DNA of 64,000 bases, from NCBI GenBank assembly GCA_029775855.1, contig JARVJZ010000004.1, positions 4,901 to 68,900 of the forward strand, given 5' to 3'. Made by a program: the position numbers and the translations under genes. This DNA comes from Nitrososphaeria archaeon (GTDB lineage: Archaea; Thermoproteota; Nitrososphaeria; Nitrososphaerales; JAAOZN01). Below, piece by piece: positions 7,261 through 33,256 of this stretch (within the stretch, counting starts at the first letter, position 1; every line of letters begins with the position of its first letter). The notes below the pieces were generated by a model, which worked only from the letters and a program-made list of their open reading frames with translations, did no database searches and was not told where the DNA came from.

Positions 7261-7529
7261 ATTAATGATGTTTAAAGGGGTTAGAGTTAAATGTTTCGAA
7301 GCAATATATTAGGCTATTTACTTGCAAAATCTGGAATACTGGAGGCAGTGGTCTGTTATATGTGTCCTGCTTGATTCTGTATGGTAAGTGGGATTCGTGC
7401 TTAAAAAGAGGAAGAGTTATCTTTTACCGCTTATGTTATCAATCGCCGCCTCTATCGCCCATAATAGAAAGTTTCGCGAAGCGATATGAAGGTAACACAT
7501 TTAAGAAAGCTTGATAAAGACGTGGTACA

Positions 7530-9601: not shown

Positions 9602-10316
9602 ATTTAGCCCTAGACTTCATATATGAGTCAATTATCAACCTATACTTACTCATATCTGGGGTATAGCACGGGTATCTAAATCCAACTTGCATAGATGTTG
9701 AAACAGCGGTTTTAAATACAGATGCTATCACCTGTGTCACCTCAGAGCTTGTAGCACCATTTTTTAAAGCCCGCTCGCTAAAGACTTGGATGCCGTGTTT
9801 CCAGCCTTTAACAGCACTTACGGCTAAGCAGAGTAAGTTTTGCAGCCGTTCTTCCAGCGATGTTTTCTGAAATATGATTTTGATTGTTGTTAAAAAATCT
9901 TGGAACCATTTCGGATCGAAATCGAGGAAAGCGAGCATTTTTGCCGGCAAATTAATCTGGTTCGTGTATCCAAAAGACTTCGCATGATCTTGATATTCGA
10001 AGTTAAGTTGCTGAAGTGTATAATCCAAATCAGCTAAGCCAATGATCAAAGAAGATATTCTGATAGCATCATTTATCTCCGCTTCATTAGCTCCTGCACT
10101 AAGAGCTTGATCTACGTGGATCAAGACCCCTGGTTCCCAGAGGTATGCTACTGCTTTACCTAGCCCGATTAGATGCTTTTCCTTAGCTGTAAGTGTGCAA
10201 GAGTGAGGCCAATTTAGAACAGACATTATGTAGGCGTTTACCCATTCGGAGTCATCTATCAAACCTTTAGCCCAAAGATAAGGGGGCACAGGCATCCCAA
10301 TTTTTCTGCTACGCAA
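9564..10316 (-). CDS. AhpD-like / carboxymuconolactone decarboxylase-family protein (two tandem domains, no CxxC)
   Basis: Two segments have the CMD-domain pattern: KHLIGLGKAVAYLWEPGVLIHVDQALSAGANEAEINDAI and LLCLAVSAVKGWKHGIQVFSERALKNGATSSEVTQVI. The usual catalytic Cys positions are not Cys. Confidence 0.55.
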   Translation of the reverse strand: MRSRKIGMPVPPYLWAKGLIDDSEWVNAYIMSVLNWPHSCTLTAKEKHLIGLGKAVAYLWEPGVLIHVDQALSAGANEAEINDAIRISSLIIGLADLDYTLQQLNFEYQDHAKSFGYTNQINLPAKMLAFLDFDPKWFQDFLTTIKIIFQKTSLEERLQNLLCLAVSAVKGWKHGIQVFSERALKNGATSSEVTQVIASVFKTAVSTSMQVGFRYPCYTPDMSKYRLIIDSYMKSRAKYGEKNLDFDSML

Positions 10317-10337
10317 TGGACTCTACATCATTATCCT

Positions 10338-17305: not shown

Positions 17306-18064
17306 TTACCCATTGTCGTCTCTAGTTAATTCCATAAGTTCCTCTATATTCTTAGGCTTCAGAATCAGCTTATCCTTTAATCTAATTCCCATTGGTATTT
17401 CCTTTATATCATTTAGCGATTTGAAGATTGGTGGGAGAGGCTCTCTCGACCCTAAAAGTAGTAAGGCTTTATCCTCATCGTACGGGATTATCTTCTTCTT
17501 TTCACCCTTTGGTTTGAATACAACTGATGGGTTAGTTAAGCTTGGGTTTGGTAAGTCCTTTAGTTGTTTGACAGAACCATACTTTTTGACTAGATTCTCC
17601 ATTGTATCAAAGTCTAGAGCTCTCATCGGGCAAGCTAAGACGCATACAGGCTTAAGACCTTCTTCAAGTCTATCGATGCACATTGTACATTTATTAGCCT
17701 TAACGTCATTAGCTAACCTATCGCTCTCGTATGTTATGGCTCCATATGGGCAAGCTCGTTGGCAAAGTCTGTAACCTTTGCATTTTTCTTGATCTATCAG
17801 AACCGCGCCGTATTTCTCTTCTTTATATATTGCACCGTTAGGACACGCATCTATACAGACGGGATTACTACAATGGAAGCAGGTTACCCAGCGTATATGA
17901 GTTTTGATATTGGGATAATATCCCTCCTCATATTCGTAGATTCGAAGATATTTTATTGGCCCCGGTTTCAAGTCATACCAATCCTTACAAGCAACTACAC
18001 ACGCCTTGCAGTTAATGCATCTATCTTCGTTAAAGTAGAAGCCATATTGGACCATATCGCTCAC
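17306..18064 (-). CDS. Four-cluster ferredoxin subunit (DmsB/NarH-like) of molybdoenzyme 1
   Basis: Four Cys groups: CINCKACVVAC, CFHCSNPVCIDACP, CKGYRLCQRACP (C-x2-Y-x2-C-x3-CP, a NarH-like 3-Cys group) and CTMCIDRLEEGLKPVCVLACP. It has a C-terminal extension of about 100 aa ending in ELTRDDNG. It overlaps the catalytic gene by 4 nt. Confidence 0.85.
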   Translation of the reverse strand: MSDMVQYGFYFNEDRCINCKACVVACKDWYDLKPGPIKYLRIYEYEEGYYPNIKTHIRWVTCFHCSNPVCIDACPNGAIYKEEKYGAVLIDQEKCKGYRLCQRACPYGAITYESDRLANDVKANKCTMCIDRLEEGLKPVCVLACPMRALDFDTMENLVKKYGSVKQLKDLPNPSLTNPSVVFKPKGEKKKIIPYDEDKALLLLGSREPLPPIFKSLNDIKEIPMGIRLKDKLILKPKNIEELMELTRDDNG

Positions 18065-20736
18065 CTCAACTTTTGTACCTCAACAACACTTGTTACTGGG
18101 AATGAACCAGATGGGCTCATCGAATCATATGTCAACACATTACAAGCACCTCTGCTATCCATGCCAGCTGGGTTTGGTGTAAACCAAGCACCGTGCCAAA
18201 CTGCTACGACGCCAGGCATAATCTTTGCAGTCACATAAGCCGGCAGTATTATTTCACCGCAATCGTTGAATACTCTAACCAAATCACCATCCTTGATACC
18301 TCTAGCTTTTGCGTCAGAGACACTTATCCATACTGAGTGTCGATACGCCTCCTCATCTAGCATAGGGTTGGTATCGTATGCTGTGTGAGATCTGTAGCGG
18401 CTATGCGGTGTTATCATTGTTAATGGATACTTATTTGCCAATGGGCTGAACATCATGTGCTCTGGTGGAATATATTTTGGAATAGGTGGTACATATCCAC
18501 CGTATTTTGTTTTAGTGAGATCAGTTTTAGCCAAATACTCTGAATATATCTCGATCTTTTTAGATGAGGTATTTGCGAAAGGTTTTCCTTCTTTGACTTC
18601 AACGCCATATGAATAAAGTGGTTCTGGAAAATCAAAGTGGTAAACCACTTGCTTCTTGAAGTCTTCCCAGCTAGGTAGGGTTCGCCCAATATTTGCTAGA
18701 CTTTTTGCTCTTGCTTCCCACGCTGCTTTAAGAAGCCTATCTTTAGTTTCTTCCCATTTGGAGTCATCTGTGTAATTGGGGTTGAATTCTTTGAGGAAGC
18801 CCATCTTCTCCGCTAGCTTTGTAAATATCCAATCTGGTTCTTTTGCCTCTCCTTGAGGTTCAACACATTTAGGAGAGTAGACCCACCAGCAACCCGATAT
18901 ATTCCCCCAAGGTGAATCTATAGTTGTAGTTTCAAATGGTGTTTCGACTACTGGTAATATAACATCAGAATACAGTGCAGTAGGTGTCATATGTATTGCG
19001 AAGTTAACGACATAATCAACCTTCTCAAGCGCCTTTACACCCTTTAGAATGTTCATGTTTCTGTTCAGATATTGACCGATTGCGTTAAAGATCATCTTGA
19101 TATTAGGTAAGGGGTTAGTTGCAGGATTACCTATTATGCTATTGTACTGCTCGGCAGTCAACGATTTACCAACCTCGTCTCTAAGAAGTATGGTATCAGC
19201 CCACTTAAACTGCTTAAAAGCTATAATTGTCTTTTGTTTTCCACTTCCACCCCAGCTAGCGCTTGGTGGACTTGGGGCTCTATCGCTCTCAATAGCCCAA
19301 TTAGTGGTGTTAATGTATCCACCCGGTACACCGATGTTTCCAGTTAAAGCTTGAAGCGCTATTGCAGCTCGAGCAACGTTTTCACCGTATTGATTTCTTG
19401 CTGGAGCCCAGCTTTTGAAGAGGCAGACAGGCTTGCTTCTCGCATATAAACGTGCAAAGCTTCGTATGGTTTCAGCTGGCACACCGCAAATCTTTTCAGC
19501 CCACTCTGGAGTTTTTGGTACACCATCCTCAACTCCTGTGACGTAGTCCTTCCACTTCTTAACCCCTTCTGGTTCAACAAACTTTTCGACATATTCTTTA
19601 TCATATAAGTCTTCAGTAAAGAGCACATATGCAACCGCTAAAGCAAAAGCAATATCTGTACCTGGTCGTATTGGGATCCATTGGTCTGCTAGTATGTCTA
19701 TAGTGTTAGTGTATTTGGGATCTATCGCTATTATTGGAGTGCCTTTCTTTTCTTTGATAAGTTTCATAAGATATAAAGTGTTTGTGCCAAATATTGTGTT
19801 TGCAGGGTCGTGCCCCCATAGAACTATTAGATTTGAATTAATCATGTCTGTTGTCTGATGACCTTTACCATAAGTTATACCCAACATATGGTTCTCGCTA
19901 AAGATCTCTGCCTCAAAAGAGCAAACACCCCAGCTATCGACTGTGTCAACAATGTGACTAAAGAATCTTGAGGCTCCTCTCTGCCATATAGAATATGGCC
20001 CATATTTCTCTTTGACTTCCTTAATCATCTTTGCGACTAAATCTAATGCTTCATCCCAGCTAATTCTTACAAATTTTCCCTCTCCTCTCTTTGTGCCCTC
20101 CACTCTTTTCATTGGGTACTTTATCCGATCTGGATTGTATATCCAATATTTCAGTGCACGCCCCCTTACACAAGGACGCTTTTGGACGATCGCGTTTATT
20201 AGCTTGTGATAATCAAGCAACTCATCTTCAATCGCTACGTTTGAATGGAGTAAGTCGTCTCCTTCGATAGCTGTAATAACACCGTTCTTAATTCTTGCTT
20301 TAAGTAGACAACCTCTGCCACCGCAGTTAATTGTGCAACTACCATAGCTTATGGTTTCTTGTTGGTGTTTTGCTGCTAGTTGCTGTTTTATGGCTTCGAC
20401 TCTTTGTTTGATTTCTGGTGATAGGGGTGGTTTTAGGCTTGGTGGTGGGGGTGGTGTTTGAGTTACGGTTGTGGTTGCTGTTTGAGTTACTGTTGCTGTT
20501 TGTGTTACTGGTGTTGTGACTGTCGTTGTCTGTGTTACTGGTGTTGTTACCGTCGCTGTTTGTGTTGTGGTTCTGGTCTGTGTTACTGTTGCTGTGACTG
20601 TCTTTTCAACCTCTCTGATAGGTGTGAGAAGCCTATCAGCACCAACACCAACCGCAACACCAGCTACAGCAGAAGCAGCTAAAGCGCCAGCCCACTTCAA
20701 CATAGAACGGCGAGAAACCTTAACCTCCTCACCCAA
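18061..20736 (-). CDS. TAT-exported molybdopterin oxidoreductase catalytic subunit, DmsA-like, paralog 1
   Basis: Twin-arginine motif SRRSMLKW followed by an h-region. A Thr/Pro-rich insert of about 60 aa comes next. The FS0 motif is CTINCGGRGC...C. DMSO-reductase-family blocks are present (GEGKFVRISWDEALD, IDPKYT, WIPIRPGTD, TGNIGVPGG and the C-terminal GIKDGDLVRVFND). TTG start. Confidence 0.9.
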   Translation of the reverse strand: MGEEVKVSRRSMLKWAGALAASAVAGVAVGVGADRLLTPIREVEKTVTATVTQTRTTTQTATVTTPVTQTTTVTTPVTQTATVTQTATTTVTQTPPPPPSLKPPLSPEIKQRVEAIKQQLAAKHQQETISYGSCTINCGGRGCLLKARIKNGVITAIEGDDLLHSNVAIEDELLDYHKLINAIVQKRPCVRGRALKYWIYNPDRIKYPMKRVEGTKRGEGKFVRISWDEALDLVAKMIKEVKEKYGPYSIWQRGASRFFSHIVDTVDSWGVCSFEAEIFSENHMLGITYGKGHQTTDMINSNLIVLWGHDPANTIFGTNTLYLMKLIKEKKGTPIIAIDPKYTNTIDILADQWIPIRPGTDIAFALAVAYVLFTEDLYDKEYVEKFVEPEGVKKWKDYVTGVEDGVPKTPEWAEKICGVPAETIRSFARLYARSKPVCLFKSWAPARNQYGENVARAAIALQALTGNIGVPGGYINTTNWAIESDRAPSPPSASWGGSGKQKTIIAFKQFKWADTILLRDEVGKSLTAEQYNSIIGNPATNPLPNIKMIFNAIGQYLNRNMNILKGVKALEKVDYVVNFAIHMTPTALYSDVILPVVETPFETTTIDSPWGNISGCWWVYSPKCVEPQGEAKEPDWIFTKLAEKMGFLKEFNPNYTDDSKWEETKDRLLKAAWEARAKSLANIGRTLPSWEDFKKQVVYHFDFPEPLYSYGVEVKEGKPFANTSSKKIEIYSEYLAKTDLTKTKYGGYVPPIPKYIPPEHMMFSPLANKYPLTMITPHSRYRSHTAYDTNPMLDEEAYRHSVWISVSDAKARGIKDGDLVRVFNDCGEIILPAYVTAKIMPGVVAVWHGAWFTPNPAGMDSRGACNVLTYDSMSPSGSFPVTSVVEVQKLR

Positions 20737-20755
20737 ACAACATCAACTCTTGCTC
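20350..20755. repeat. Left arm of a perfect 406-bp inverted repeat (partner at 27719-28124)
   Basis: I compared the reverse complements block by block. The antisense ORFs in the two arms are also identical in the ORF track. Identity ends at 20349/28125 and at 20756/27718. Confidence 0.95.
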
Positions 20756-20937: not shown

Positions 20938-22347
20938 TTGATAATAGTGTTGGTTAACCCACCTTTTACACTTAGTGAATGTTTCCGAGGTTTTGCAAGA
21001 GTTGGCAGTATACAGCAGCCGCTTGGTCTTGCTTATGTGGCGGCTGTATTGGAGGAGGCTGGGTATAATGTTAAGATTATCGATTCGCCGGTGTTAGGAC
21101 TGAGTTTACAAGAGACTGTCGAGACTGTCATTAGAATGAGACCAGATGTCGTCGGAATTACTGCCACCACTCCAACTTTCAATAGGGCTATTAGCTTAGC
21201 AGAAAGTCTAAAGAAGGTAGCTGATATACCACTAGTTATCGGTGGGCCGCATTCTACTACACTCCCTGATGAAACCCTAGCCCTTTCCTGCTTTGATATA
21301 GCGATCATAGGCGAAGGTGAATACACAATGCTTGAATTACTTAAATGCTTGCAAAAAGGTACATCTTTATACGAAGTTAAAGGGATAGCGTTTAAAGAAA
21401 GGGGACAGATAGTAAAGACTCCTCCTAGAGCATATATAGACGACCTAGATGCGCTTCCTTTTCCAGCGCGCCACCTCCTTCCACCTTTAAAGTATTATCA
21501 CCCTACTCCTTCTGCTTATCGCTCATTACCACAGGCTACAATGATTACAAGTAGAGGTTGCCCCTACCAATGCACCTTCTGCGACCGTTCAGTATTTGGA
21601 AACAAGTATAGAGCAAGAAGTCCCAAGAATGTAGTTGAAGAAGTTGAAGAACTCGTCTACGAATATAGGGCAAAAGAAGTGAGGTTTTGGGACGACACAT
21701 TTAACATCAACAGAAAAAGAGTTCTAGAGATTTGTAGAGAAATGCGGATGCGAAGACTAGACATAAGCTGGACATGCCTATGTAGGGCAAACTTAGTAGA
21801 TGAAGAAATGTTACGTGAAATGGCCAAGGCTGGGTGTTGGCAAGTAGAATATGGCATAGAATCCGGTAACGAGGAACTTCTTAAAAAGATCGGTAAGGGA
21901 ATTACTCTCCAACAAATTAAGGGCGCAGTAGAAAAAACTAAAGCCGCGGGTATGAAGGCCCGAGGTTTCTTTATGCTGGGCTTACCTGGTGAAACTGAGC
22001 AGACTCTCAGACAGACTATAATCTTCGCAAGGTCCTTAAAGCTGGATGCTGCTGTCTTCCACATTACGATCCCCTTTCCAGGAACAGACCTATATCTAAG
22101 CGCTGTCTCCAGTGGCGAACTACGCACTGACTTAAACTACCAATATTATTTGATGTTTGGCTCAGATGAAGTCCCATATATACCAAAAGGGTTAACTAAA
22201 GAAGTACTCTTGAAGTATCGGTCAATAGCATATAAGTCATTTTATCTAAGGCTAAGTTATATGCTAGAACAGTTAGCTTCTGCAAGATCTCTTAAAGATT
22301 TATTTCGATACCTACTTGGTTTTATAACCCTAGCGCGCATCGAGTGA
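20938..22347 (+). CDS. B12-binding-domain radical SAM protein (class B)
   Basis: The N-terminal part is a cobalamin-binding-like domain (LGLAYVAAVLEEAGYNVKIIDSP...VGITATTP). The radical SAM motif is SRGCPYQCTFCD. TTG start. Confidence 0.8.
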   Translation: MIIVLVNPPFTLSECFRGFARVGSIQQPLGLAYVAAVLEEAGYNVKIIDSPVLGLSLQETVETVIRMRPDVVGITATTPTFNRAISLAESLKKVADIPLVIGGPHSTTLPDETLALSCFDIAIIGEGEYTMLELLKCLQKGTSLYEVKGIAFKERGQIVKTPPRAYIDDLDALPFPARHLLPPLKYYHPTPSAYRSLPQATMITSRGCPYQCTFCDRSVFGNKYRARSPKNVVEEVEELVYEYRAKEVRFWDDTFNINRKRVLEICREMRMRRLDISWTCLCRANLVDEEMLREMAKAGCWQVEYGIESGNEELLKKIGKGITLQQIKGAVEKTKAAGMKARGFFMLGLPGETEQTLRQTIIFARSLKLDAAVFHITIPFPGTDLYLSAVSSGELRTDLNYQYYLMFGSDEVPYIPKGLTKEVLLKYRSIAYKSFYLRLSYMLEQLASARSLKDLFRYLLGFITLARIE

Positions 22348-22354: not shown

Positions 22355-23044
22355 TTATTTGCTCAACTCATCTATTACAAAAGGTATAAATTCTTGTTCT
22401 ATTTTAATAAATCCATTTAACATTTTTGCAATACCTATGTAAAATTTGTTCGAAGACGCCTCTACAATCTTTCGACAAAGCTCTGGCACCCATTTACTTA
22501 GATGATCGCTTAAGAACTCCATTTGTAGTTTCAAGTATCCCTTTGAGTACTCAACGTTATTTGCGTCAAGGCTTCGCTTCGTCAAGTCTACCAGCTTTGC
22601 CATAAACTCTAGTTCCACAGCTAAATGGTCTTCAGGTTCTTTAAAATCAGGGGTTTTCTCAAAGCCTAATATTCTATATGCATCCAAGACCTCAAAATAT
22701 GGTTCTTCATATAACGTATGGTGCTTTCCAAGGTACACCGATTCAACTAAATAGACTGGTTTAGGGCCGACATTCAAGAAAAGTGATGCGTATTCTGAAG
22801 CAAGATCCGTAAGTAAGTTATTCCTTTCTGGAGTTTCTTTAAAGTTTTTAAAGAAATCGGATATGATTATGCAACCTTTCTTTAGTTCCTCATTATCTGC
22901 TGATTCAGACAATTGGATAAAAAGTTCTTCTAGTTCTTCTATAAGTTTGAGAAATGCTTCATCGACTTCCTTTGCAAAACTTCTTGATAAGAAGCTATAG
23001 AGAACGTACCTTGTCTGCATAACATCTTTATAATTATTTAACAA
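22355..23044 (-). CDS. TorD/DmsD-family redox-enzyme maturation chaperone
   Basis: The N-terminal RYVLYSFLSRSFAKEVDEAFL pattern and the acidic helical body (EDHLAVELEFMAKL) are typical of TorD-like chaperones. It is the last gene of the Psr-like operon. Confidence 0.65.
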   Translation of the reverse strand: MLNNYKDVMQTRYVLYSFLSRSFAKEVDEAFLKLIEELEELFIQLSESADNEELKKGCIIISDFFKNFKETPERNNLLTDLASEYASLFLNVGPKPVYLVESVYLGKHHTLYEEPYFEVLDAYRILGFEKTPDFKEPEDHLAVELEFMAKLVDLTKRSLDANNVEYSKGYLKLQMEFLSDHLSKWVPELCRKIVEASSNKFYIGIAKMLNGFIKIEQEFIPFVIDELSK

Positions 23045-23062
23045 CCTGATCTAACTTCCTTC

Positions 23063-24304
23063 TTATTGGTTAATATTCTTTTCCGTCCTCCATATAGGAA
23101 ATATCCAATATGCTATAGTAGTTATAAGAGCAATTATACCAAATAAAGCAGCGCCTATCGTTAATTCTATCCACGTAGGAAAGTACACACCATACACACC
23201 AAATGAAGATAAGCCGACACTGTATTCTCCTTTTGCTATGCCAGGTGGTAATAATATAGGCGGATATATATAGCCTGGGACTACAAGTTCAACTCTGTAG
23301 GATAATACGCCGGTAAGCACAAGTAAGGCTGCCAATCCAAGTATCTTCGGGTTCATTCTAAGTCTTGGATGTAATAGTAAGATGAATGGTAATATGGCCC
23401 CCGGGATCCACTCGTATACGAAGAATGGTAAGAAGGGGCCGGTAAATATTAGCGTTAGAGGTAGTGTCTCTGATGGTGCGGCAGACCATAACCTTATGAC
23501 GAATTCATTTCCTATAAGGAATAGATCTATTGGGATGATGACTGCAAGCAACTTACCGAGTGTATTAATTGTTTTAACCTCTACTCTTATTCGGCTGCGC
23601 CACTGCATGATTAGAACTGTCAATATGACTAATGAGAGCCCTGAGATCATAGCTGAGGCTAAGAAGATAGGGGCAATCAAAGCGCTGTACCACCAGCTTC
23701 TACTTATTTGTGTTCCGAATATCCACGCTGTTACTGTGTGTAGCATTACTGCTGTGGGCAGAGCTATAAACGAGATCACTTTGACTATTCTCTCGTCTTT
23801 AGCAACCGCTTTTGGCGAAACATCATTAAATCCGAAGGTGAGACGGCTGCCTTTCCTAGCTAACTCCGCACGCATCATAAACCAAAGATCAACTATACAC
23901 AAGACCAAATAGACAACTATTACAGTAAAGTCCCATATCAGCGGCGAAAGTGGATTGCCATATAATATAAGGTAGGCTATACGCTCAGGTCTACCCAAAT
24001 CTGGGATAATAGATAGAGCTGCAACAGCAACACAAGCAGCTGCCAGCGTGGTAGCCACTTTAGCTATCGGTTTAAACTCTTCTACTCCAAACACATGTGC
24101 AGAAGATGAGACGATAAGACCACCTGCGCTTATGCCTACGAAGAAGGCAAATAATGTGATGTAGATTCCCCAGCTTACAACATTTCTCATTCCAGTTACT
24201 ATCAACCCGTTTTGTAGCTGGATAATCCACGCACCCAAGCCTCCGCCGATGAGCAGAAGTAAAAATATTAACCAGCCGTAGAATAATGGCGAATGTTTAG
24301 CCAC
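23063..24304 (-). CDS. NrfD/PsrC-type integral membrane quinol-interacting subunit
   Basis: About 10 TM helices. The NrfD-like opening is VVSWGIYITLFAFFVGISAGGLIVSSS. It overlaps the FeS gene by 8 nt. Confidence 0.8.
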   Translation of the reverse strand: MAKHSPLFYGWLIFLLLLIGGGLGAWIIQLQNGLIVTGMRNVVSWGIYITLFAFFVGISAGGLIVSSSAHVFGVEEFKPIAKVATTLAAACVAVAALSIIPDLGRPERIAYLILYGNPLSPLIWDFTVIVVYLVLCIVDLWFMMRAELARKGSRLTFGFNDVSPKAVAKDERIVKVISFIALPTAVMLHTVTAWIFGTQISRSWWYSALIAPIFLASAMISGLSLVILTVLIMQWRSRIRVEVKTINTLGKLLAVIIPIDLFLIGNEFVIRLWSAAPSETLPLTLIFTGPFLPFFVYEWIPGAILPFILLLHPRLRMNPKILGLAALLVLTGVLSYRVELVVPGYIYPPILLPPGIAKGEYSVGLSSFGVYGVYFPTWIELTIGAALFGIIALITTIAYWIFPIWRTEKNINQ

Positions 24305-25106
24305 GCTGCAACACCCTCTTCAAAGTGGCTGAAGCGATAGCCTTTAGAGAAATATCACTTGATGTTGATATGATGGATGTTAATGTAGATTCGACATGCT
24401 TGACAAAAGCTTCATATAAGTTAGTAAACGACTGTTTACCACGTTTAGGTGGAAGATAGTAGGTCTTCGGTTGTGTCCCTAATTCTTCAAGCAATCTTAC
24501 ACCACTCCGCTCTTTAACCAGTTTTGACACTTTGCTATTGGGATCATCCAGATCTCCGAAGAATCTTGCTCTCGCGGGGCACATAGCTACGCAGAAGGGC
24601 TCTTGCCCATCTGTGATACGATGTATACATAGTGTGCATTTTTCTACGACACCCTTAGGTCTCTCCGGAGAATATATTATCCAACCCTCATCCTTTACTA
24701 CACCTTGATAACCTGTTCCATGCTCAGGCAAATGCTTTGGTTCTGCCCAGTTGAAGACGCGAACGCCATAAGGACAAGCGGCCATACAATATCTGCATCC
24801 TACACACCTCTCAATTCTTAGCTGTACAGTTCCATCTTCTTCACGCCTATAGGTGCCTGAAACAGGGCAAGCTTTTACACACGGTGCGTTATCACAATGT
24901 TGACATGTAATTGGAAGATAGAATATAGATGTATTTGGGTAGCTTCCTGAGCTTGTGTCAATCATAGACCCGCCGACGGTAAGCACTCGATTCCACCAAT
25001 TTCCTAAGCTCACATTATTCTCAAGTTTGCAAGCGATTGCGCAGGTTTGGCAGCCAATGCATCGATCCAAATCTATAACAAGCCCATATCTTACCAACCT
25101 AATCAC
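24297..25106 (-). CDS. Four-cluster ferredoxin subunit (PsrB/HybA-like)
   Basis: Cys groups CIGCQTCAIAC, CQHCDNAPCVKACP, CVGCRYCMAACP and CTLCIHRITDGQEPFCVAMCP. Confidence 0.85.
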   Translation of the reverse strand: MIRLVRYGLVIDLDRCIGCQTCAIACKLENNVSLGNWWNRVLTVGGSMIDTSSGSYPNTSIFYLPITCQHCDNAPCVKACPVSGTYRREEDGTVQLRIERCVGCRYCMAACPYGVRVFNWAEPKHLPEHGTGYQGVVKDEGWIIYSPERPKGVVEKCTLCIHRITDGQEPFCVAMCPARARFFGDLDDPNSKVSKLVKERSGVRLLEELGTQPKTYYLPPKRGKQSFTNLYEAFVKHVESTLTSIISTSSDISLKAIASATLKRVLQRG

Positions 25107-25109
25107 ATC

Positions 25110-27626
25110 CTATGCTTTTTGAACCTCAACTAATGTGTCAAAGAAGGAGCAGTTTAGAGTTATTGGATTCTTGTGTGCTGGTGTCAACTCATTATAGCTA
25201 CCTGCTGCGAACTGCCTTTTTTGCCATCCTTTATCCATGTTAATCAAGCCCGGTCTTAAACTTGGATTTAATTTGGCTCTCGCTCTTACCCAGCCTCTAT
25301 CGTTAAACACGTTAACGACATCGCCATTCTTAATTCCTCTGGCTTCAGCGTCCCTCGGGTTCATTTCGACAAATGGTTCTGGATCTAGTTCCCTTAACCA
25401 AGGAACTTCATACCACTGGGAGTGAACACGCCACTTCGAATGCTGCTGTATAAGCGTCAATGGATACTTCTTAGTTAAAGGGTTTTCGACCCAAGCTTCT
25501 TTAGGTGATTCAAAGTATGGAAGCGGATTAACACCCATAGTTACAGATATACCAAGAGCTGGATATGCCCAAGGATAGTTTAAAATCACCCTCTCAGAAT
25601 AAAACTCAAGACGCCCAGTTTGAGTAGGGTATTTACCGTCTTCATAGCCTATATAAGGCTCTTTAGAAAGTCTTACTACTCCCTCTTCTTTGAATCTTTT
25701 GATCTTTTCTTCACCGTATACTTCCTTTAACGCAGCAAGTATTCTTTCCCGATGGTCAGCTTCTGAACCTTGAAAGTATTGACCGAATCCCATCTTTTCA
25801 GCTAACATCTTAAAGATGTCCCAATCACTTTTGCATTCATACAACGGTTTGATCGCTCTTTCTTGGATCATTAGGTATGGGTGTAAACCACCCATTAAAT
25901 CGTCGTTCTCAAACCACGTTGTAGCTGGGAGAACAATATCAGCAAACATAGCTGTATCATTCATCTTCTGCTCTATCACTACGATAAATTCTAAGTTTTC
26001 TTCGGAAAACAGCTTTTCAATCCACTTTTGATTAGGGTAGCTGTTAACAAAGTTAGTACAAGATATTACTGCAGCTTTGATGGTGTATGGTGTTGGGATG
26101 GGGTCTTTGCTTATAGTTCCTTTTAAGGGGTCAGCCGGATCGCTAGGCACATACCTTTCAACATAACCATAAGCTATTGCGTCGTAAGCTAGGAGCGGAT
26201 TCAGGGTGTGAGCTTCTGTCCCAGATGGGGTAACCCACCTCCAAGACTCACTTAAAGCTGCTATTAGAGCTGAACCACCGTATGGTCCTCCAACCATCGC
26301 GCCAGGCCTACCTATGTTTCCAGTTAGTGCTGCTAGTGTAGCTAACGCTCTACCAGTAAGATAGCCATTATCCCATCTATCTACACCGAACCCTGCGAGA
26401 ATGCAGGCTGGTTTTCTTGTTGCATAGAGCCTTGCTACTTCTTGAACTTCGTTTGCAGGAACTTCGGTTAGCGCTTCAGCGTTTTCGGGTTTATATTTTG
26501 AGGCTTCTTCCCAAAGTAGCTGTAGAGCTGTTTTACAAAGTATACCATTAATTACGTATTTTCCAAAAAGAGCTGGAGGCATAGCTTTCTCGAAAACCGT
26601 TGGAGCGTCGGTGGCTTCATCATAGACTACATAATTGTTACTACCGTTTTCTTTGATGTCTTTTTCTCTTAAAAATAGACCATTATCTAATCTAACCAGA
26701 AATGGTGCGACTGTGCGCTCTAGAACAAACTTTCTATCATATAGCTCTTCATTCAATATGGTGTAGATCATTGAGAGGGCTAGCGCCGGATCTGAGCCTG
26801 GTCTTGGTTTTAGCCATATATCTGATTTGGCGGCTACAACACTCATTCTAGGATCGATGGAAACCATTTTTGCCCCGTTTTCCAGAGCATCTGCTACGAA
26901 ATGCCAGTTTTGAATCTGGCTTTCAGTGAAGTTAGACCCCCACATTATGATAAGCCTAGTATTATCTGCTATATCCACTGCTTCGTTAGCGCCAAAGAAA
27001 GCTGAGCTACCTCCTGGGATGTTTGCAATAACTTGGCTAAGTCCAAGTGGGAGGGCTGAGTCGACTCCTCCTTCTACTACCGTACCTTGAAATATATTGG
27101 CAAATAGCTTCATGGCGCCACAGAAGCTACCATTCACTAAACCATAATTCCCAGAGAGTGTAGCGAACATTACAGCACTTGAGCCATACTTCTCTTTGAC
27201 TTTTAAGAGTTTTTGTGCAATAGTGTTAATGGCTTCATCCCAGCTTATCCTTACCCACTTACCCTCACCCCTCTTCCCCACTCTTTTCAAAGGATACTTT
27301 AGTCTATTTGGATCATAAACACGTTGAACATGAGATAAACCTCTAAGGCATATCCGATCATACCTTCTATTGGGCATAGGTGCCATCTCAGTTTTAACAA
27401 GCTTATCCTCAAATACGTGGACATAAAGCCTGCAGCTCTGCCAGCAGTTAGGAGCGCAAGCGCTACGAAATACTTTAGTTGTCTTCTCCATCTTTTCGAT
27501 TGAAGCAGAAGCGCGAGATGGTATAAGCAAATTGCAACCAAGTGAGGATAAAGCTGCAATAGAAGTTGTTAAGGCAAGGCCTTTCAGGAAGGAACGACGC
27601 GATAGAACCATTGTAGGCTTATCCAC
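25110..27626 (-). CDS. TAT-exported molybdopterin oxidoreductase catalytic subunit (Psr/Ttr/Dms-like), substrate unknown
   Basis: Twin-arginine signal SRRSFLKGLALTT. FS0 motif CAPNCWQSC. Family blocks GEGKWVRISWDEAI, IDPRMS, TGNIGRPG and the C-terminal GIKNGDVVNVFND. Confidence 0.9.
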   Translation of the reverse strand: MDKPTMVLSRRSFLKGLALTTSIAALSSLGCNLLIPSRASASIEKMEKTTKVFRSACAPNCWQSCRLYVHVFEDKLVKTEMAPMPNRRYDRICLRGLSHVQRVYDPNRLKYPLKRVGKRGEGKWVRISWDEAINTIAQKLLKVKEKYGSSAVMFATLSGNYGLVNGSFCGAMKLFANIFQGTVVEGGVDSALPLGLSQVIANIPGGSSAFFGANEAVDIADNTRLIIMWGSNFTESQIQNWHFVADALENGAKMVSIDPRMSVVAAKSDIWLKPRPGSDPALALSMIYTILNEELYDRKFVLERTVAPFLVRLDNGLFLREKDIKENGSNNYVVYDEATDAPTVFEKAMPPALFGKYVINGILCKTALQLLWEEASKYKPENAEALTEVPANEVQEVARLYATRKPACILAGFGVDRWDNGYLTGRALATLAALTGNIGRPGAMVGGPYGGSALIAALSESWRWVTPSGTEAHTLNPLLAYDAIAYGYVERYVPSDPADPLKGTISKDPIPTPYTIKAAVISCTNFVNSYPNQKWIEKLFSEENLEFIVVIEQKMNDTAMFADIVLPATTWFENDDLMGGLHPYLMIQERAIKPLYECKSDWDIFKMLAEKMGFGQYFQGSEADHRERILAALKEVYGEEKIKRFKEEGVVRLSKEPYIGYEDGKYPTQTGRLEFYSERVILNYPWAYPALGISVTMGVNPLPYFESPKEAWVENPLTKKYPLTLIQQHSKWRVHSQWYEVPWLRELDPEPFVEMNPRDAEARGIKNGDVVNVFNDRGWVRARAKLNPSLRPGLINMDKGWQKRQFAAGSYNELTPAHKNPITLNCSFFDTLVEVQKA

Positions 27627-27718: not shown

Positions 27719-28124
27719 GAGCAAGAGTTGATGTTGTTTGGGTGAGGAGGTTAAGGTTTCTCGCCGTTCTATGTTGAAGTGGGCTGGCGCTTTAGCTGCT
27801 TCTGCTGTAGCTGGTGTTGCGGTTGGTGTTGGTGCTGATAGGCTTCTCACACCTATCAGAGAGGTTGAAAAGACAGTCACAGCAACAGTAACACAGACCA
27901 GAACCACAACACAAACAGCGACGGTAACAACACCAGTAACACAGACAACGACAGTCACAACACCAGTAACACAAACAGCAACAGTAACTCAAACAGCAAC
28001 CACAACCGTAACTCAAACACCACCCCCACCACCAAGCCTAAAACCACCCCTATCACCAGAAATCAAACAAAGAGTCGAAGCCATAAAACAGCAACTAGCA
28101 GCAAAACACCAACAAGAAACCATA
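27719..28124. repeat. Right arm of the perfect 406-bp inverted repeat (partner at 20350-20755)
   Basis: Same evidence as the left arm. It covers 19 nt of 5' leader plus codons 1-129 of the gene. Confidence 0.95.
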
Positions 28125-30428
28125 GTGTACAGTGGGGGGTGTGGAATAAATTGTGGTGGTGGCGGAGGTTGGGATAGTGGGTGCTTCTTTAAAATAAGAC
28201 TTAGGGATGGTGTGATAACAGCTATAGAATCTGATGATACTATTAACACCAATCTGCCTAGGGAAGACGAAGTAAAAGATAACATTGATAAAGTGAGACT
28301 TCAACGCCGACCGTGTGTCCGTGGTAGAGCTTGGCGCAAATATATCTACGGACCAGACCGTATTCTATATCCATTGAAGAGAGTAGGTCAAAGAGGTGAG
28401 GGAAAGTTTGTTCGAATTAGTTGGAATGAGGCTCTAGATACTATTGCAGCTAAAATGAAAGAAATGAAAGAGAAATACGGTCCATACTCAATAGGCACTA
28501 TGTATGAGTACCAAGAGTTTCCTAACATTCTTGCATACTTTGGTTGCGGCGCTACAGGTTGGAGCACAGCGTCTTTTGAAGCTACTAACTTTGCTGGGCT
28601 ACAGATGATGGGTGCTTGGGCTTGGATACCTTACGTTGATCACGAAGCACCAGACATTTTTAACACTAAACTCATAATCATGTGGGGGTGGGACCCAACT
28701 ACATCAGAATGGATGATCTTCACAAAATACTATCTTCTACTAGCAAAAGAAAAGGGTATACCAATTATCGTAATCGAACCTAGATATACGTCATCGGCAG
28801 AAGTTTATGCAGACCAGTGGATACCAATTAGACCCGGCACTGATGTAGCAATGATGTTAGCGATGGCAAACGTTATATTCAAGGAAAAGCTTTACGATCA
28901 AGATTATATCTCGAAATATGTGGATACGAATGGTCTTCAAAAATGGATGGACTATGTCTTAGGTAAGTCTGATGGAGTCGATAAGACGCCTGAGTGGGCA
29001 GAGAAGATATGCGGTGTTCCTGCTGAAACTATACGCGACTTAGCTCGACTATACGCTAAGAGCAAACCTTGCCATCTTAATGTAAGCTGGGCGCAAGCCA
29101 GACAGCCTTGGGGTGAGAATGTCGCTAGAGCAGCAATAGCTTTACACGCCATAACGGGAAACATAGGTGTGCCAGGTGGTGCTTCTTGCTTAGGTGGTGG
29201 ATTTGTGGCAAGAGGTGTTTATGATAGCCCAGTTGTCGATTATAGGCAAAAACCTGTTCCCGTAACAGAAATGTGGGGTGGGACATTACCAGTGCTATAT
29301 TGCAACTGGAAGTGGGCTGATGTAGTTCTGCTAAAAGAGAAGGTTGATAAGGGTGAGATGACTAAAGAAGATTACTACAGCATCATCGGTAACGATGCAA
29401 ATAACCCTATGCCCAATCTACATATGTTATGGATAAATAAGAACATATTTAATCAGACAGTTGATCTTAACAAACAAATCAAGGCTATTATGAAGATGGA
29501 CTTTGTAGTTGCTTGCGGGAGGCATATGACGCCATCAAACAAATATGCTGATATAATATTGCCCCTAACAGATGTCATGTTTGAAGAAAGACACTTTTTC
29601 GGCAACATGTATGCACCAAAGATCATTAACCCCCCAGGAGAAGCAAAAGATTTGTTGTGGATTCAAACTCAACTCGCCAAAAGACTGGGTCTTCTCGACT
29701 TGTATATGCCACTCTACACTACAGATGCTGAATGGGATAACTTGCTGGAAAGGCTCCATAAAGAAGCCTATGAAAAATGGGCGGCTCAACGAGGAATAAA
29801 TGTTTCTTGGGAGGAGTTTAAGAAGAAGCCAATAATACGCAGAGATGTCGTAGGAGAATTGAATTATCCCTTTAAAGCGCAGATTCAGAAAGGTGAGAAA
29901 TTTAACACAAGTACTGGCAAGATCGAAATATATTCTGAATATTTGGCTAAGACTGATCTAAAGAAGACAAGATACGGAGGATATATAGATCCTATGCCAG
30001 TCTACAGACCGCTTTGGGAAGGCTTTTACGATCCAAAAGCAAAAAAGTATCCACTTATGGTTATCACACCCCACGGAAGGTACAGAATCCACTCTGTTCA
30101 AGACTCTAATCCTTGGTTATCTGAAGATGCATATAGGAACTCAGTTTGGATAAGTGTGGTCGACGCTAAAGCAAGAGGCATTAAAGACGGTGACTTAGTC
30201 AGAGTTTACAACGACGTGGGAGAAATGGTGATTCCAGCTTATGTGACTTCGAGGATAGTACCTGGTGTAGTCTGTGTGTATGAGGGTAGATGGTATAGTC
30301 CAAACCCCAAAGGAGTCGATCGTAGAGGATGCAGTGATATAATATGTTATAATGAGAGTGCTGTACAACGATATCCCGGCGCTGGAGCTTGGCCGTTTAC
30401 AGCGCTTGTGGAGGTTGAAAAGTTCTAA
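27738..30428 (+). CDS. TAT-exported molybdopterin oxidoreductase catalytic subunit, DmsA-like, paralog 2
   Basis: The first 129 aa are identical to paralog 1. The FS0 motif carries a Gly-rich insertion (CGINCGGGGGWDSGC). Family blocks are present (GEGKFVRISWNEALD, IEPRYT, WIPIRPGTD, TGNIGVPGG, GIKDGDLVRVYND). By eye it is roughly half identical to paralog 1 after residue 129. Confidence 0.9.
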   Translation: MGEEVKVSRRSMLKWAGALAASAVAGVAVGVGADRLLTPIREVEKTVTATVTQTRTTTQTATVTTPVTQTTTVTTPVTQTATVTQTATTTVTQTPPPPPSLKPPLSPEIKQRVEAIKQQLAAKHQQETIVYSGGCGINCGGGGGWDSGCFFKIRLRDGVITAIESDDTINTNLPREDEVKDNIDKVRLQRRPCVRGRAWRKYIYGPDRILYPLKRVGQRGEGKFVRISWNEALDTIAAKMKEMKEKYGPYSIGTMYEYQEFPNILAYFGCGATGWSTASFEATNFAGLQMMGAWAWIPYVDHEAPDIFNTKLIIMWGWDPTTSEWMIFTKYYLLLAKEKGIPIIVIEPRYTSSAEVYADQWIPIRPGTDVAMMLAMANVIFKEKLYDQDYISKYVDTNGLQKWMDYVLGKSDGVDKTPEWAEKICGVPAETIRDLARLYAKSKPCHLNVSWAQARQPWGENVARAAIALHAITGNIGVPGGASCLGGGFVARGVYDSPVVDYRQKPVPVTEMWGGTLPVLYCNWKWADVVLLKEKVDKGEMTKEDYYSIIGNDANNPMPNLHMLWINKNIFNQTVDLNKQIKAIMKMDFVVACGRHMTPSNKYADIILPLTDVMFEERHFFGNMYAPKIINPPGEAKDLLWIQTQLAKRLGLLDLYMPLYTTDAEWDNLLERLHKEAYEKWAAQRGINVSWEEFKKKPIIRRDVVGELNYPFKAQIQKGEKFNTSTGKIEIYSEYLAKTDLKKTRYGGYIDPMPVYRPLWEGFYDPKAKKYPLMVITPHGRYRIHSVQDSNPWLSEDAYRNSVWISVVDAKARGIKDGDLVRVYNDVGEMVIPAYVTSRIVPGVVCVYEGRWYSPNPKGVDRRGCSDIICYNESAVQRYPGAGAWPFTALVEVEKF

Positions 30429-30436: not shown

Positions 30437-31183
30437 ATGATGGTTCAATATGGATTTTTCTTTGACCAAAGCAGATGCATAGGTTGCAGAGCTTGCGCTG
30501 TAGCTTGCAAGGACTGGAACGATCTGCCTGAAGGACCGGTTAAGTGGCTTCGGATATATGAATATGAAAAGGGTGCTTTCCCAAATGTGAGGGTTCACTA
30601 CCACTTCATTCCTTGTTTCCATTGCGAAAACCCCATATGTATAGACGCATCTAGTGCTCGCGGTATTTATAAGGAAGAAAAGTATGGTGCTGTGTTAATA
30701 GACCCTGATAAGGCTACTAAACTGAGGGATGCAGCCGCTGCTTGCCTATACGGTTCGATAGTCTTTGAAAGTGATGCCTCTGATGCAAAAGCCTCAAAAT
30801 GCACAATGTGCATAGATCGATTAGAAGAGGGGCTACTACCAGTTTGCGTAGCAGCGTGCCCAACTAGAGCTTTGGATTTTGGACCTCTTGAAACATTGCA
30901 AAGAAAGTATGGTACAAACAGGGATCTAGAGGATCTACCACCGTCTACTCTAACAAAGCCTTCCGCAATCTTTAAGCCACACTCTCCGAAGAAGCAGCTA
31001 GTCAGCTACGATGTAAATAAGGCCCTAAAGCTGCTTGCTGAAAGAGGCGATCTACCAAGTATATATAGTACAGCTGAGGATGTATTAAATATACCAGAAG
31101 GGCTGTTAAAGCGCAATAAGTTAGTTCTTAAGCCAAATAGCGTAAAGGACCTTCAAGAACTAACAAGGGACGATAACGCCTAA
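30437..31183 (+). CDS. DmsB-like ferredoxin subunit of molybdoenzyme 2, with one cluster-binding site lost
   Basis: Group I (CIGCRACAVAC) and group IV (CTMCIDRLEEGLLPVCVAACP) are intact. Group II is CFHCENPICIDASS, so its last Cys is Ser. Group III is ATKLRDAAAACL, so only its last Cys is kept. The C-terminal extension ends in ELTRDDNA. Confidence 0.85.
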   Translation: MMVQYGFFFDQSRCIGCRACAVACKDWNDLPEGPVKWLRIYEYEKGAFPNVRVHYHFIPCFHCENPICIDASSARGIYKEEKYGAVLIDPDKATKLRDAAAACLYGSIVFESDASDAKASKCTMCIDRLEEGLLPVCVAACPTRALDFGPLETLQRKYGTNRDLEDLPPSTLTKPSAIFKPHSPKKQLVSYDVNKALKLLAERGDLPSIYSTAEDVLNIPEGLLKRNKLVLKPNSVKDLQELTRDDNA

Positions 31184-31199: not shown

Positions 31200-32318
31200 A
31201 TGACTCTCCTCTCATATTTTTTTAGAATTTTATGGATTTTCCTTTCACTTTCAATTTCTTCAGCAGCAGTATGGTCAGTTTTTTACCTACCAAATCCACA
31301 ATTACCTAGCAACAACAATGTTCTTCAACTTGTTAATAGCGGGGGAATGCCGGCAATAGACTCTCTTGGCGATACTGTCTCCTACATTTCATTAAATGAT
31401 GGATATAGTGAGATATGGTTGATTCGCAGCGATGGAAGAGAAAATAGACTTTTAACACCTATAAAAGGTAATATATCTAAAATTAAGTGGAGTCCAAATG
31501 GATTAGTAATAGCGTTTATTGCTAATCAAGGCTCTGATAAGATCTTCAGGATTTCGAAATATGGTGGAGTTATTACGCCAGTGAGCCGCGCGTTTGATGC
31601 TATCGAACAATTTGTATGGCTAGACGATGAATGGATTTTGCACGACGGCTACGAAAATGGTAAGTGGGGCGTATATCTCTCTAAAACAGACCGCGTGTAC
31701 GTTAGACTTAGCTCTTTCGATATCGACGCAAAGCATCCTAACTTATTAAAAGAAGGATCTCTTGTTGCAATGAGCGCAAAATATAGCGAGGGATACAAAA
31801 TAATCCTTTACAATCTCACATCAGGAAGTTGGACTCCTATAACTTTTGGAAGTGGTGATGATCTTAAACCCGCATTCAGCCCAGACGGCAAGAAGATAGC
31901 ATACCTATCTAATCGAGCAGGCAGGTGGAGCATTTGGCTAAAGAACATTGACACCGATAGTGAAATAGATCTTACGGCACCTTTTTCAGAGAGACGATAC
32001 CCCAGTTGGGCTCCTGATGTAGACCTCAATACAACTTTGATCTGGAAACCAGATTCACAACATCTAATATTCGACGGAAAACGTGGAAATTCCCGCGAGA
32101 TTTATATAATTAACTTAAGTGGTGGAACGGTAACTTTACGTTTCGCCGTTAAAGAATATTTTCCTCTGATACTCAACGTGGTATTTGAAAGCGTTTCGTC
32201 CTACAATCCAGTAATAGATCCAAGAGGTGAAAGTATATACTTTGAGAATAGAGGAGAAGGAGCCAGCAGTGTTTGGCGATTAGATCTTAACGTAAAACGA
32301 GCCTTATCTTATGGTTGA
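31200..32318 (+). CDS. Secreted TolB-like beta-propeller protein, paralog 2
   Basis: N-terminal hydrophobic signal or anchor. PD40-type motifs WSPNGLVIAFI, FSPDGKKIAYLSNRAGRWSIWL, PSWAPD and WKPDSQHLIF. It starts 16 nt after the FeS gene on the same strand. Confidence 0.65.
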   Translation: MTLLSYFFRILWIFLSLSISSAAVWSVFYLPNPQLPSNNNVLQLVNSGGMPAIDSLGDTVSYISLNDGYSEIWLIRSDGRENRLLTPIKGNISKIKWSPNGLVIAFIANQGSDKIFRISKYGGVITPVSRAFDAIEQFVWLDDEWILHDGYENGKWGVYLSKTDRVYVRLSSFDIDAKHPNLLKEGSLVAMSAKYSEGYKIILYNLTSGSWTPITFGSGDDLKPAFSPDGKKIAYLSNRAGRWSIWLKNIDTDSEIDLTAPFSERRYPSWAPDVDLNTTLIWKPDSQHLIFDGKRGNSREIYIINLSGGTVTLRFAVKEYFPLILNVVFESVSSYNPVIDPRGESIYFENRGEGASSVWRLDLNVKRALSYG

Positions 32319-32392: not shown

Positions 32393-33256
32393 ATGAACGC
32401 TAAACCTATACTCATTATAATTGCTTTAATTATAGTTTCGTTAGCCGGTGTATTTTCTTATAATCTTCACCAACCTTTAGAGGTTGATAGAGTTGTTGAC
32501 GTGAGGTGGCTTGAAACTAATTGCGGTGGAGTCAAGATTGTAGCGGTTGGAAGCGACCAATCGCTTTTTAAAAGAGGATACATTCCTAGATCCTCTTTTA
32601 TATCTTACCAAGATCTAATAGATAAGAATTCGAGTATTCAAGGGCTGGTCTTGAAGGCTGAGGATTTTGAGAGGTTGATGAGCCATCTTGGAGTCTCAGA
32701 GAAGACCAGCATTCTGCTTTATGATAATCAATCTGGCTTATTTGCTGCACGAGCCTACTGGACACTCTACTATTATGGGCATAAGAGTATCCTGTTCCTG
32801 GATGGTGGAGTATCATCGTGGATAAAGGCTGGGTTACCATTAGAATCAACAACCACATCTAGCATATCTTCACAATACAAAATAGGTCAACTAAACTCTC
32901 AATCTCTAGCTACATTAACATACGTTAAAAGCCATTTGTATGATCCCCATGTTGTGATCATAGATGCTAGATCTGAAAGTGAATACTCTGAAGGCCATAT
33001 TCCGAATGCAATCCACATAGAATGGTCAGCTACGCTCACCTCTGAAGGCTTATTCAAAAATAAAACAGTATTAAAAGAATTATTTGCAAAACAAGGCATC
33101 ACACCTGAGAAGACTATAGTCACATATTGTAGAACTGGTGTGAGAGGGGCGCACATGTGGTTTGTGCTAAGTCAGATACTTAAATACCCTAATGTTATGC
33201 TTTATGACGGCTCTTGGGAAGAGTGGCTGGCAACAAGTCAGCCCATAGAAAGATAG
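32393..33256 (+). CDS. Exported or membrane-anchored tandem-rhodanese sulfurtransferase
   Basis: N-terminal anchor PILIIIALIIVSLAGVF. Two rhodanese domains. The active-site loop YCRTGVRGAH is in the second domain. Confidence 0.8.
   Translation: MNAKPILIIIALIIVSLAGVFSYNLHQPLEVDRVVDVRWLETNCGGVKIVAVGSDQSLFKRGYIPRSSFISYQDLIDKNSSIQGLVLKAEDFERLMSHLGVSEKTSILLYDNQSGLFAARAYWTLYYYGHKSILFLDGGVSSWIKAGLPLESTTTSSISSQYKIGQLNSQSLATLTYVKSHLYDPHVVIIDARSESEYSEGHIPNAIHIEWSATLTSEGLFKNKTVLKELFAKQGITPEKTIVTYCRTGVRGAHMWFVLSQILKYPNVMLYDGSWEEWLATSQPIER

Follow-up and report, generated by a model that had tools for sequence, protein, structure and literature searches.

Why should one of two closely related iron-sulfur (FeS) subunits encoded in a single stretch of archaeal DNA lack the ligands of one cluster, and what would this mean for electron transfer in its enzyme? 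The question is raised by beta-2, the FeS subunit encoded directly downstream of the molybdoenzyme catalytic subunit alpha-2 (together enzyme 2), and by its paralogue beta-1, which pairs with alpha-1 (enzyme 1). Both lie in a 64,000-nucleotide (nt) stretch of contig JARVJZ010000004.1 from a Nitrososphaeria archaeon (assembly GCA_029775855.1), referred to below as the window (Table 1). The clusters of such beta subunits are numbered FS1 to FS4, and FS0 is the cluster of the alpha subunit. Beta-2 probably serves an exported, membrane-tethered enzyme as a subunit with three [4Fe-4S] clusters, and the chain of clusters (wire) would end at FS3.

Loss of the FS4 ligands from beta-2

The ligands were mapped by aligning the two beta subunits of the window with Escherichia coli NarH and DmsB. 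In Cys groups II and III, the beta-2 translation holds CFHCENPICIDASS and ATKLRDAAAACL, and that of beta-1 holds CFHCSNPVCIDACP and CKGYRLCQRACP. The columns of NarH C196, C217, W220 and C223 (DmsB C79, C99, C102 and C105) are occupied by C74, C95, Y98 and C101 in beta-1 and by S72, A93, L96 and A99 in beta-2, and the next ligand column (NarH C227, DmsB C109) is Cys in both, C105 and C103, respectively. All remaining ligand columns are Cys in the four proteins alike. In NarH, FS4 is a [3Fe-4S] cluster with the ligands C196, C217 and C223, and FS3 is bound by C184, C187, C192 and C227 (table in PMC5338063). The positions substituted in beta-2 are those of the FS4 ligands, and the retained C103 corresponds to a ligand of FS3.

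As read from the aligned ligands, the FS4 site of beta-2 is gone and no other ligand site has been lost. The 12 Cys of beta-2 (positions 14, 17, 20, 24, 60, 63, 68, 103, 122, 125, 137 and 141) fall short of the 15-16 ligands in four groups that FS1 to FS4 take, a set which beta-1 has with 15. Extra Cys were sought throughout both proteins; neither tail contains one, and beta-2 has none elsewhere, so the loss of FS4 is uncompensated. The Cys set of beta-2 would provide three [4Fe-4S] sites, FS1 to FS3. For beta-1, a [3Fe-4S]-type FS4 is predicted, formed by C74, C95 and C101; Tyr98 takes the place of Trp220, which keeps the position aromatic as in NarH. Replacement of C102 of DmsB by Tyr, Trp, Ser or Phe is said to turn the cluster into a [3Fe-4S] one.

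Most of this had been claimed in the original prediction, which was made from the letters of the window and the FS4 wiring of NarH and DmsB: three Cys replaced (the last of group II, the first and middle of group III), the last Cys of group III kept for another cluster, a NarH-type three-Cys FS4 in beta-1 with Tyr in the Trp position, and a clean deletion that leaves beta-2 with three clusters. The alignment bears out each of these points and that wiring, the cluster number of beta-2 and the cluster type of beta-1 staying predictions. The motifs and coordinates of that account were also reproduced; that beta-1 lies on the minus strand had gone unmentioned in it. It had likewise pointed to a tail of about 100 aa common to both beta subunits, which is found across the whole family and is additional to DmsB and NarH. 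The tail ends in QELTRDDNA in beta-2 and MELTRDDNG in beta-1, and the two subunits are 57% identical over their full length, tail included.

The substitution pattern is conserved. A search of 5.8 billion proteins returned 1036 relatives of beta-2 at E <= 1e-20, and patterns were counted in the best 120. The nearest relative, from a metagenome-assembled genome (MAG) labeled 'Nitrososphaerales archaeon', is 99% identical. An FS4-less pattern (A/S, A/S, L/M/V, A) occurs in 46 of the 120 at 57-99% identity to beta-2, and all 46 have the remaining 12 Cys in place; 66 of the 120 have all 16 Cys and about nine have 15. The same replacement in 46 of 120 homologues indicates that FS4 loss is neither chance nor one-off decay. 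Among 50%-identity representatives, the family collapses into few sequences and the FS4-less pattern does not extend beyond the near family.

The fold has been maintained as well. Beta-2 matches Pfam Fer4_11 (E = 9e-23), and its AlphaFold2 (AF2) model, with a predicted local distance difference test (pLDDT) score of 93.6 and of 96-97 over the former FS4 region, has the ferredoxin-like fold built from two dicluster halves that typifies four-cluster proteins such as DmsB, NarH and PsrB. The best Foldseek matches in the PDB are PsrB, Desulfovibrio FdhB, ArrB and the transhydroxylase beta subunit, and the probability is 1.00 against PsrB, ArrB, FdhB, EbdB, FdnH and NarH. Beta-2 therefore shares fold and four-group layout with the E. 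coli proteins and differs from them in lacking the FS4 site. The curated families nearest to the pair are TIGR02166 (dmsA_ynfE) for alpha-2, at 481 bits with a cut-off of 778, and TIGR02951 (DMSO_dmsB) for beta-2, at 145 bits with a cut-off of 214; both subunits fall below these thresholds. The label 'DMSO reductase subunit B' covers at least three cofactor classes and should be used with caution.

FS4, FS0 and predicted export across the family

The distribution of the trait was assessed in 79 loci, one genome per species, with scripted classing of FS4, FS0 and the twin-arginine translocation (TAT) motif; individual loci are cited by number (L001 and so on). The taxa represented are Dehalococcoidia, Desulfobacterota, Syntrophales, Eggerthellaceae (Gordonibacter, Ellagibacter, Raoultibacter, Adlercreutzia and Slackia), Bathyarchaeota and Nitrososphaerales. 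As in the window, where alpha-2 runs to 30428 and beta-2 from 30437 and beta-1 likewise follows alpha-1, a beta gene lies directly downstream of the alpha gene of the molybdenum bis(pyranopterin guanine dinucleotide) (Mo-bisPGD) type in the 65 scanned loci with a readable upstream alpha open reading frame (ORF).

An FS4 site is present in 55 pairs, 20 of them with four Cys and the others with three Cys and one of D, N, A, E, T, Q, K, S or Y. All except two of the 55 have an alpha subunit of ~820-840 aa, no TAT motif and frequently a major facilitator superfamily (MFS) transporter as neighbor. The two with a TAT motif are alpha-1 of the window and its counterpart in L089, both paired with a three-Cys FS4. 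The four FS0 Cys are kept in 54 of the 55 partner alphas. Many cytoplasmic members (L027-L088) have a residue other than Cys, such as Asp, Asn, Glu, Thr or Ala, at the second position of group III (DmsB C102, NarH W220), so a three-Cys FS4 is common in the family; in the Coriobacteriia members this residue is mostly Asp, a possible iron ligand.

The 12 FS4-less pairs are all archaeal and occur only in Bathyarchaeota and Nitrososphaerales MAGs. Their alphas all contain a Pro- or Thr-rich linker, and SRRS[MILV]LK is found in nine, two more being cut by a contig end and one lacking the motif. All FS0 Cys are absent from six of these partners, three are left in one, and five keep the set, including alpha-2 and its orthologue in L092. 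The association between FS4 loss and FS0 erosion gives a Fisher p of 3e-5, a figure that overstates the evidence given that the loci are phylogenetically non-independent. In the predicted proteins, FS4 loss tracks TAT export and FS0 erosion.

Alpha-2 itself begins with the near-consensus twin-arginine motif SRRSMLK, followed by a hydrophobic anchor and a Thr/Val/Gln-rich stalk of ~60 aa that terminates in PPPPP; beta-2 has no signal sequence of its own. The FS0 Cys of alpha-2 (C135, C139, C149 and C193) have the unusual spacing Cx3Cx9C...C, kept in the L092 orthologue, and those of alpha-1 (C134, C138, C143 and C189) follow Cx3Cx4C...C. The Mo ligand is a DmsABC-type Ser, S279 in alpha-2 and S273 in alpha-1, and 63 of 63 family alphas have Ser in this column of the alignment; in E. 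coli DmsA, the residue is numbered S176, presumably S205 of the precursor.

These data also bear on the membrane partner. FS4 had been expected to face a membrane subunit, its loss uncoupling enzyme 2 from the quinone pool. Neighbors were inspected for an anchor at both window pairs and at L001, L002, L006-L009, L068, L070, L074 and L088-L092, and none of these loci has an NrfD/DmsC-type anchor or cytochrome gene beside the alpha-beta pair; DmsABC and NarH systems, in contrast, have a DmsC or NarI partner. The sole NrfD gene of the window belongs to a separate Psr-like operon, and NapH/NosR-like or cytochrome partner genes were absent from the 40 window ORFs of at least 150 aa scanned up to position 53000. 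By prediction, the relatives with FS4 have two subunits, lack TAT and are cytoplasmic, and the FS4-less ones are exported and prone to FS0 erosion, so the contrast is one of cytoplasmic against exported enzymes rather than of quinone-coupled against uncoupled ones, and this part of the original prediction was not supported.

The cytoplasmic members resemble Gordonibacter-type catechol dehydroxylases, which have a TAT-less catalytic subunit smaller than its Eggerthella-type counterpart, a single FeS protein and a neighboring MFS transporter (PMC7028382, PMC11887054). This group of two-subunit cytoplasmic bis(molybdopterin guanine dinucleotide) enzymes from gut Coriobacteriia includes Dodh, Cldh and Gp Hcdh. 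The same layout is seen at the family loci of Gordonibacter, Ellagibacter, Raoultibacter, Adlercreutzia and Slackia, where betas are 45-52% identical to beta-2 and alphas 37-40% to alpha-2. These enzymes are cytoplasmic and keep FS4 (four Cys, or three Cys plus Asp) as well as FS0; neither window enzyme has the TAT-less arrangement with an MFS neighbor that these bacterial members show. Looking up sequence clusters by the exact alphas and betas of Gordonibacter and Ellagibacter gave generic names only, and neighborhood scans of L068, L070, L074 and L088 showed MFS and regulator-like genes with no diagnostic marker. The catechol dehydroxylase link is a lead from architecture and taxon, with no named enzyme matched.

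The order of events was approached with neighbor-joining trees in which the FS4 region was masked. In these, FS4-less sequences group with exported three-Cys sequences and never form a monophyletic set; a 'CKGARQC' three-Cys group is nested within them in 100 of 100 bootstraps, and beta-1 is adjacent to them in 87 of 100. At L090, which shares the synteny of locus 1, beta is FS4-less and alpha FS0-less. Either several FS4 losses or module transfer between paralogues would account for this pattern, and no number of events is claimed.

The number and position of FeS clusters set where a molybdoenzyme takes up or delivers electrons. Three-cluster versions of the fold are already known from transhydroxylase and from Desulfovibrio formate dehydrogenases. 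What appears to be new is that a DmsAB-like family contains a conserved FS4-less clade, restricted to TAT-exported archaeal enzymes and with coupled loss of FS0. A compact family (betas ~45-60% identical to beta-2) thereby offers a natural series of four-Cys FS4, three-Cys FS4, no FS4, and neither FS4 nor FS0, which follows the move from the cytoplasm to the archaeal cell exterior. The series is a test of whether FS4 docks partners in anchor-less enzymes and of how a transhydroxylase-type cofactor set arises, and it bears on the role of the DmsAB-like enzymes, abundant but unstudied, in Bathyarchaeia and thermophilic Nitrososphaeria.

The probable wire of enzyme 2 and its alternatives

In the reading that we favor, beta-2 would be a functional version of the DmsB/NarH-type four-cluster protein, with the small or hydrophobic residues Ser, Ala, Leu and Ala in place of the ligands of FS4, the distal cluster, and would pair with alpha-2, the Ser-ligated Mo-bisPGD subunit. 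The folded pair would leave the cell via TAT, beta-2 hitch-hiking on the alpha signal, and would most likely stay tethered at the outer face of the membrane through a putative uncleaved signal-anchor and the Thr-rich stalk. The family consists of widespread two-subunit DmsAB-like enzymes, without a membrane quinol-binding subunit at the inspected loci, and its cytoplasmic bacterial members retain the ligands of the whole wire, Mo-FS0-FS1-FS2-FS3-FS4. In exported archaeal members the wire is shortened, FS4 probably becoming a three-Cys site first (beta-1) and disappearing next (beta-2), and about half of the FS4-less enzymes have lost FS0 too. Enzyme 2 would be left with Mo-FS0-FS1-FS2-FS3, and electrons, if they flow, would enter or leave at FS3 to a partner outside the cell.

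Several points weigh against this reading. The number and type of clusters are deduced solely by counting Cys. Iron ligation by Ser72 is conceivable, but with Ala, Leu and Ala at the other three positions a cluster there is very unlikely. The FS0 motif of alpha-2 (Cx3Cx9C) contains five inserted residues that might block cluster binding, which would leave the wire discontinuous. The order from four Cys to three to none is a reading of the trees rather than a result, since these are neighbor-joining trees with an unstable root, clade B being monophyletic in only 18 of 100 bootstraps. Finally, a gene for an electron partner was sought beside the pairs, and none was identified in the inspected loci.

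A switch of partner, as proposed in the original prediction, would have the [3Fe-4S] FS4 of beta-1 serve a membrane- or quinone-linked partner, with enzyme 2 using another one, soluble or tethered, or none at all, and its docking cluster lost in consequence. We consider it doubtful. The paralogues do differ exactly at FS4; locus 1 adjoins a conserved polytopic membrane protein with a predicted heme-copper-oxidase-like fold, and locus 2 has a membrane-anchored rhodanese downstream instead. L090, however, has the arrangement of locus 1 (divergent Psr-like operon, convergent propeller, same membrane protein) together with its FS4-less beta and FS0-less alpha, so the membrane protein does not track FS4. 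The lack of a canonical anchor beside the pair in every family locus examined and the predicted cytoplasmic, soluble nature of FS4-containing relatives argue in the same direction.

Alternatively, the wire may be a relic. The reaction would need no external electrons, consisting of hydroxyl or oxygen-atom transfer between two substrates or of a hydration, and the three clusters would be structural leftovers, as in an enzyme like pyrogallol-phloroglucinol transhydroxylase. This strikes us as unlikely, even though the cofactor sets converge. The transhydroxylase beta subunit of Pelobacter acidigallici (PDB 4V4C chain B) has the same fold as beta-2 (Foldseek E = 1.6e-12, phmmer E = 2.4e-20), and in the phmmer alignment it has G, A, K and L at the S, A, L and A positions of beta-2, the last Cys of group III being kept in both. 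The original prediction had named this subunit as a three-cluster parallel, which the alignment bears out: beta-2 shares with the AthL/BthL type a beta with sites for three [4Fe-4S] clusters and no FS4 ligands. The transhydroxylase alpha subunit has a Ser Mo ligand (table in PMC10100899). Neither transhydroxylase nor the beta-2 locus includes a membrane anchor, and no partner gene was found beside any of the inspected pairs. The transhydroxylase alpha is not known to contain FS0, and half of the FS4-less archaeal systems resemble it in this, with all FS0 Cys gone from alpha (6 of 12), so that the gap between the Mo cofactor and FS1 should lengthen.

Against a relic wire, alpha-2 and its orthologue keep four FS0 Cys, and alpha-2 is closer to DmsA/DorA reductases than to transhydroxylase (PDB matches at 1e-66 for DorA/TorA and 2e-51 for transhydroxylase). 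Alpha-2 is not of the AthL type, as it has no AhtL-like_1st match, carries a TAT signal and has Cys at four FS0 positions; transhydroxylase is cytoplasmic and the alpha-2/beta-2 enzyme is predicted to be exported. Conservation of the 12 FS1-FS3 Cys in all FS4-less members fits a structural and a redox role alike and does not discriminate. The transhydroxylase beta ends in a C-terminal barrel domain. The beta-2 tail was considered as its counterpart and rejected, because it is modeled by AF2 as coil and short helices, and the Foldseek alignments cover mainly the cluster-binding core.

With 28% identity to beta-2, the transhydroxylase beta belongs to a different lineage. AhtL-like alpha genes with their own betas adjoin family members at L002 (9274-12501, Bathyarchaeota MAG; beta of 195 aa) and at L068 (8833-12264, Ellagibacter; beta of 261 aa), so the two Ser-type lineages co-occur in the same clusters. 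The low identity and these separate genes make FS4 loss look convergent with transhydroxylase.

The beta subunits of the periplasmic Desulfovibrio tungsten/molybdenum formate dehydrogenases (PDB 1H0H chain B and 6SDR chain B) match the beta-2 model closely in their fold (Foldseek E ~1e-13). Such subunits contain three [4Fe-4S] clusters and serve exported, anchor-less enzymes with a soluble partner. Their catalytic subunit is of another family, with a selenocysteine or Cys ligand and formate as substrate, unlike the Ser-type alpha-2, and their partner cytochrome c3 has no counterpart in the window.

A wider proposal, which we offer tentatively and think improbable, is that the whole exported archaeal branch consists of extracellular, membrane-tethered molybdoenzymes whose wire is dismantled from both ends (FS4, then FS0) and which act as redox-neutral catalysts or use new partners. 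Transhydroxylase and acetylene hydratase are redox-neutral catalysts. A redox-neutral enzyme of this branch may act on an external substrate, for enzyme 2 perhaps a sulfur compound from the anchored rhodanese. On one reading of the new-partner version, the adjacent, extremely divergent heme-copper-oxidase-like membrane protein would complete an undescribed minimal respiratory module of thermophilic Nitrososphaeria.

Last, it is very improbable that beta-2 is a duplicate in decay and its cluster loss functionally meaningless: the genome does hold two paralogous operons and ligand loss of this kind is met in pseudogenizing FeS proteins, but the ORF and operon are intact, the operon recurs in L092 with alpha, beta, PD40 propeller and rhodanese in the same order (beta 86% identical to beta-2), the FS4-less pattern and its substitutes are conserved in the 46 homologues that keep the other 12 Cys, and the model is confident, which together make a pseudogene untenable.

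The two loci and their neighboring genes

Table 1. Features of the window discussed in the text (aa, amino acids; TM, transmembrane)
Feature	Position	Strand	Remarks
Beta-2	30437-31183	+	248 aa; DmsB-like four-cluster-protein fold; 12 Cys; C-terminal tail ~100 aa
Beta-2, group II to group III region	30614-30745	+	Spans exactly C60 codon to C103 codon
Beta-2, S72 codon	30650-30652	+	Former FS4 ligand position
Beta-2, A93 codon	30713-30715	+	Former FS4 ligand position
Beta-2, L96 codon	30722-30724	+	Former FS4 ligand position
Beta-2, A99 codon	30731-30733	+	Former FS4 ligand position
Beta-2, C103 codon	30743-30745	+	Kept FS3 ligand
Alpha-2	27738-30428	+	896 aa; Ser-type Mo-bisPGD catalytic subunit
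Beta-1	17306-18064	-	252 aa; 15 Cys; paralogue of beta-2
Alpha-1	18061-20736	-	891 aa; 56% identical to alpha-2, first ~128 aa identical
Inverted repeat arm 1	20350-20755		First 387 nt of alpha-1 together with 19 nt upstream
Inverted repeat arm 2	27719-28124		5' end of alpha-2; encodes TAT signal, anchor and Thr-rich stalk
PD40/TolB-like beta-propeller	31200-32318	+	N-terminal membrane anchor; co-directional with alpha-2/beta-2; no Cys, no cofactor motif
Second PD40/TolB-like propeller	16156-17286	+	N-terminal anchor; convergent with beta-1; no cofactor motif
Two-domain rhodanese	32393-33256	+	N-terminal TM anchor; CRTGVR active-site loop; downstream of propeller
Polytopic membrane protein	14690-15985	-	431 aa; listed ORF to 16090, likely start M36
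Psr-like alpha	25110-27626	-	With FS0 domain
Psr-like beta	24297-25106	-	16 ligand Cys
NrfD membrane subunit	23063-24304	-	Psr-like operon
TorD-like chaperone	22355-23044	-	Psr-like operon
B12-binding radical SAM protein	20938-22347	+	Near exported pair

The 5' ends of the two alpha genes form a perfect inverted repeat of 406 nt. The remaining DNA of the paralogous operons is only ~55-60% identical, which points to recent gene conversion between the paralogues. The 6963-nt segment between the repeat arms contains the Psr-like operon, and the arms could mediate its inversion. The alphas of L090 and L092 have the linker segment PSLKPPLSPEIKQRVEAIKNTLTAKHQGETIIY before the catalytic domain in common.

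The propeller genes are kept in L090, L091 and L092 and absent from the Bathyarchaeota loci, and the convergent layout of locus 1 is also found in L090 and L091. The rhodanese, which probably faces outward, is also encoded downstream of the beta-2 orthologue in L092, and its conservation hints at a sulfur or selenium compound being handled by enzyme 2.

The polytopic membrane protein has no match in Pfam or among PDB sequences and belongs to no known family. Its AF2 model (pLDDT 85) matches only subunit I folds of heme-copper oxidases and nitric oxide reductases (TM-score ~0.6, E ~1e-2). Six His are conserved (H52, H192, H194, H254, H339 and H341), as many as subunit I has for binding heme and CuB. 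Its small family of 18 proteins adjoins propeller and alpha/beta genes in L090 and L091. By this adjacency, the protein is a candidate membrane partner.

A third molybdoenzyme operon, PsrABC/DsrO-like and complete (22355-27626, minus strand), lies between the paralogous loci, and its divergent arrangement recurs in L090. In L001, the alpha of the FS4-less beta is split into ORFs of 380 and 450 aa (5421-7989); possible reasons are a frameshift, pseudogene formation, codon recoding or faulty assembly. A gene for a B12-binding radical SAM protein is found near the exported pair in the window as well as in L001 (1-175) and L002 (13413-15182), both Bathyarchaeota-type loci. The window region 8200-11744, which encodes a metallo-beta-lactamase fold, a CMD protein and a DUF2064-glycosyltransferase, is syntenic with 396-3502 of L001.

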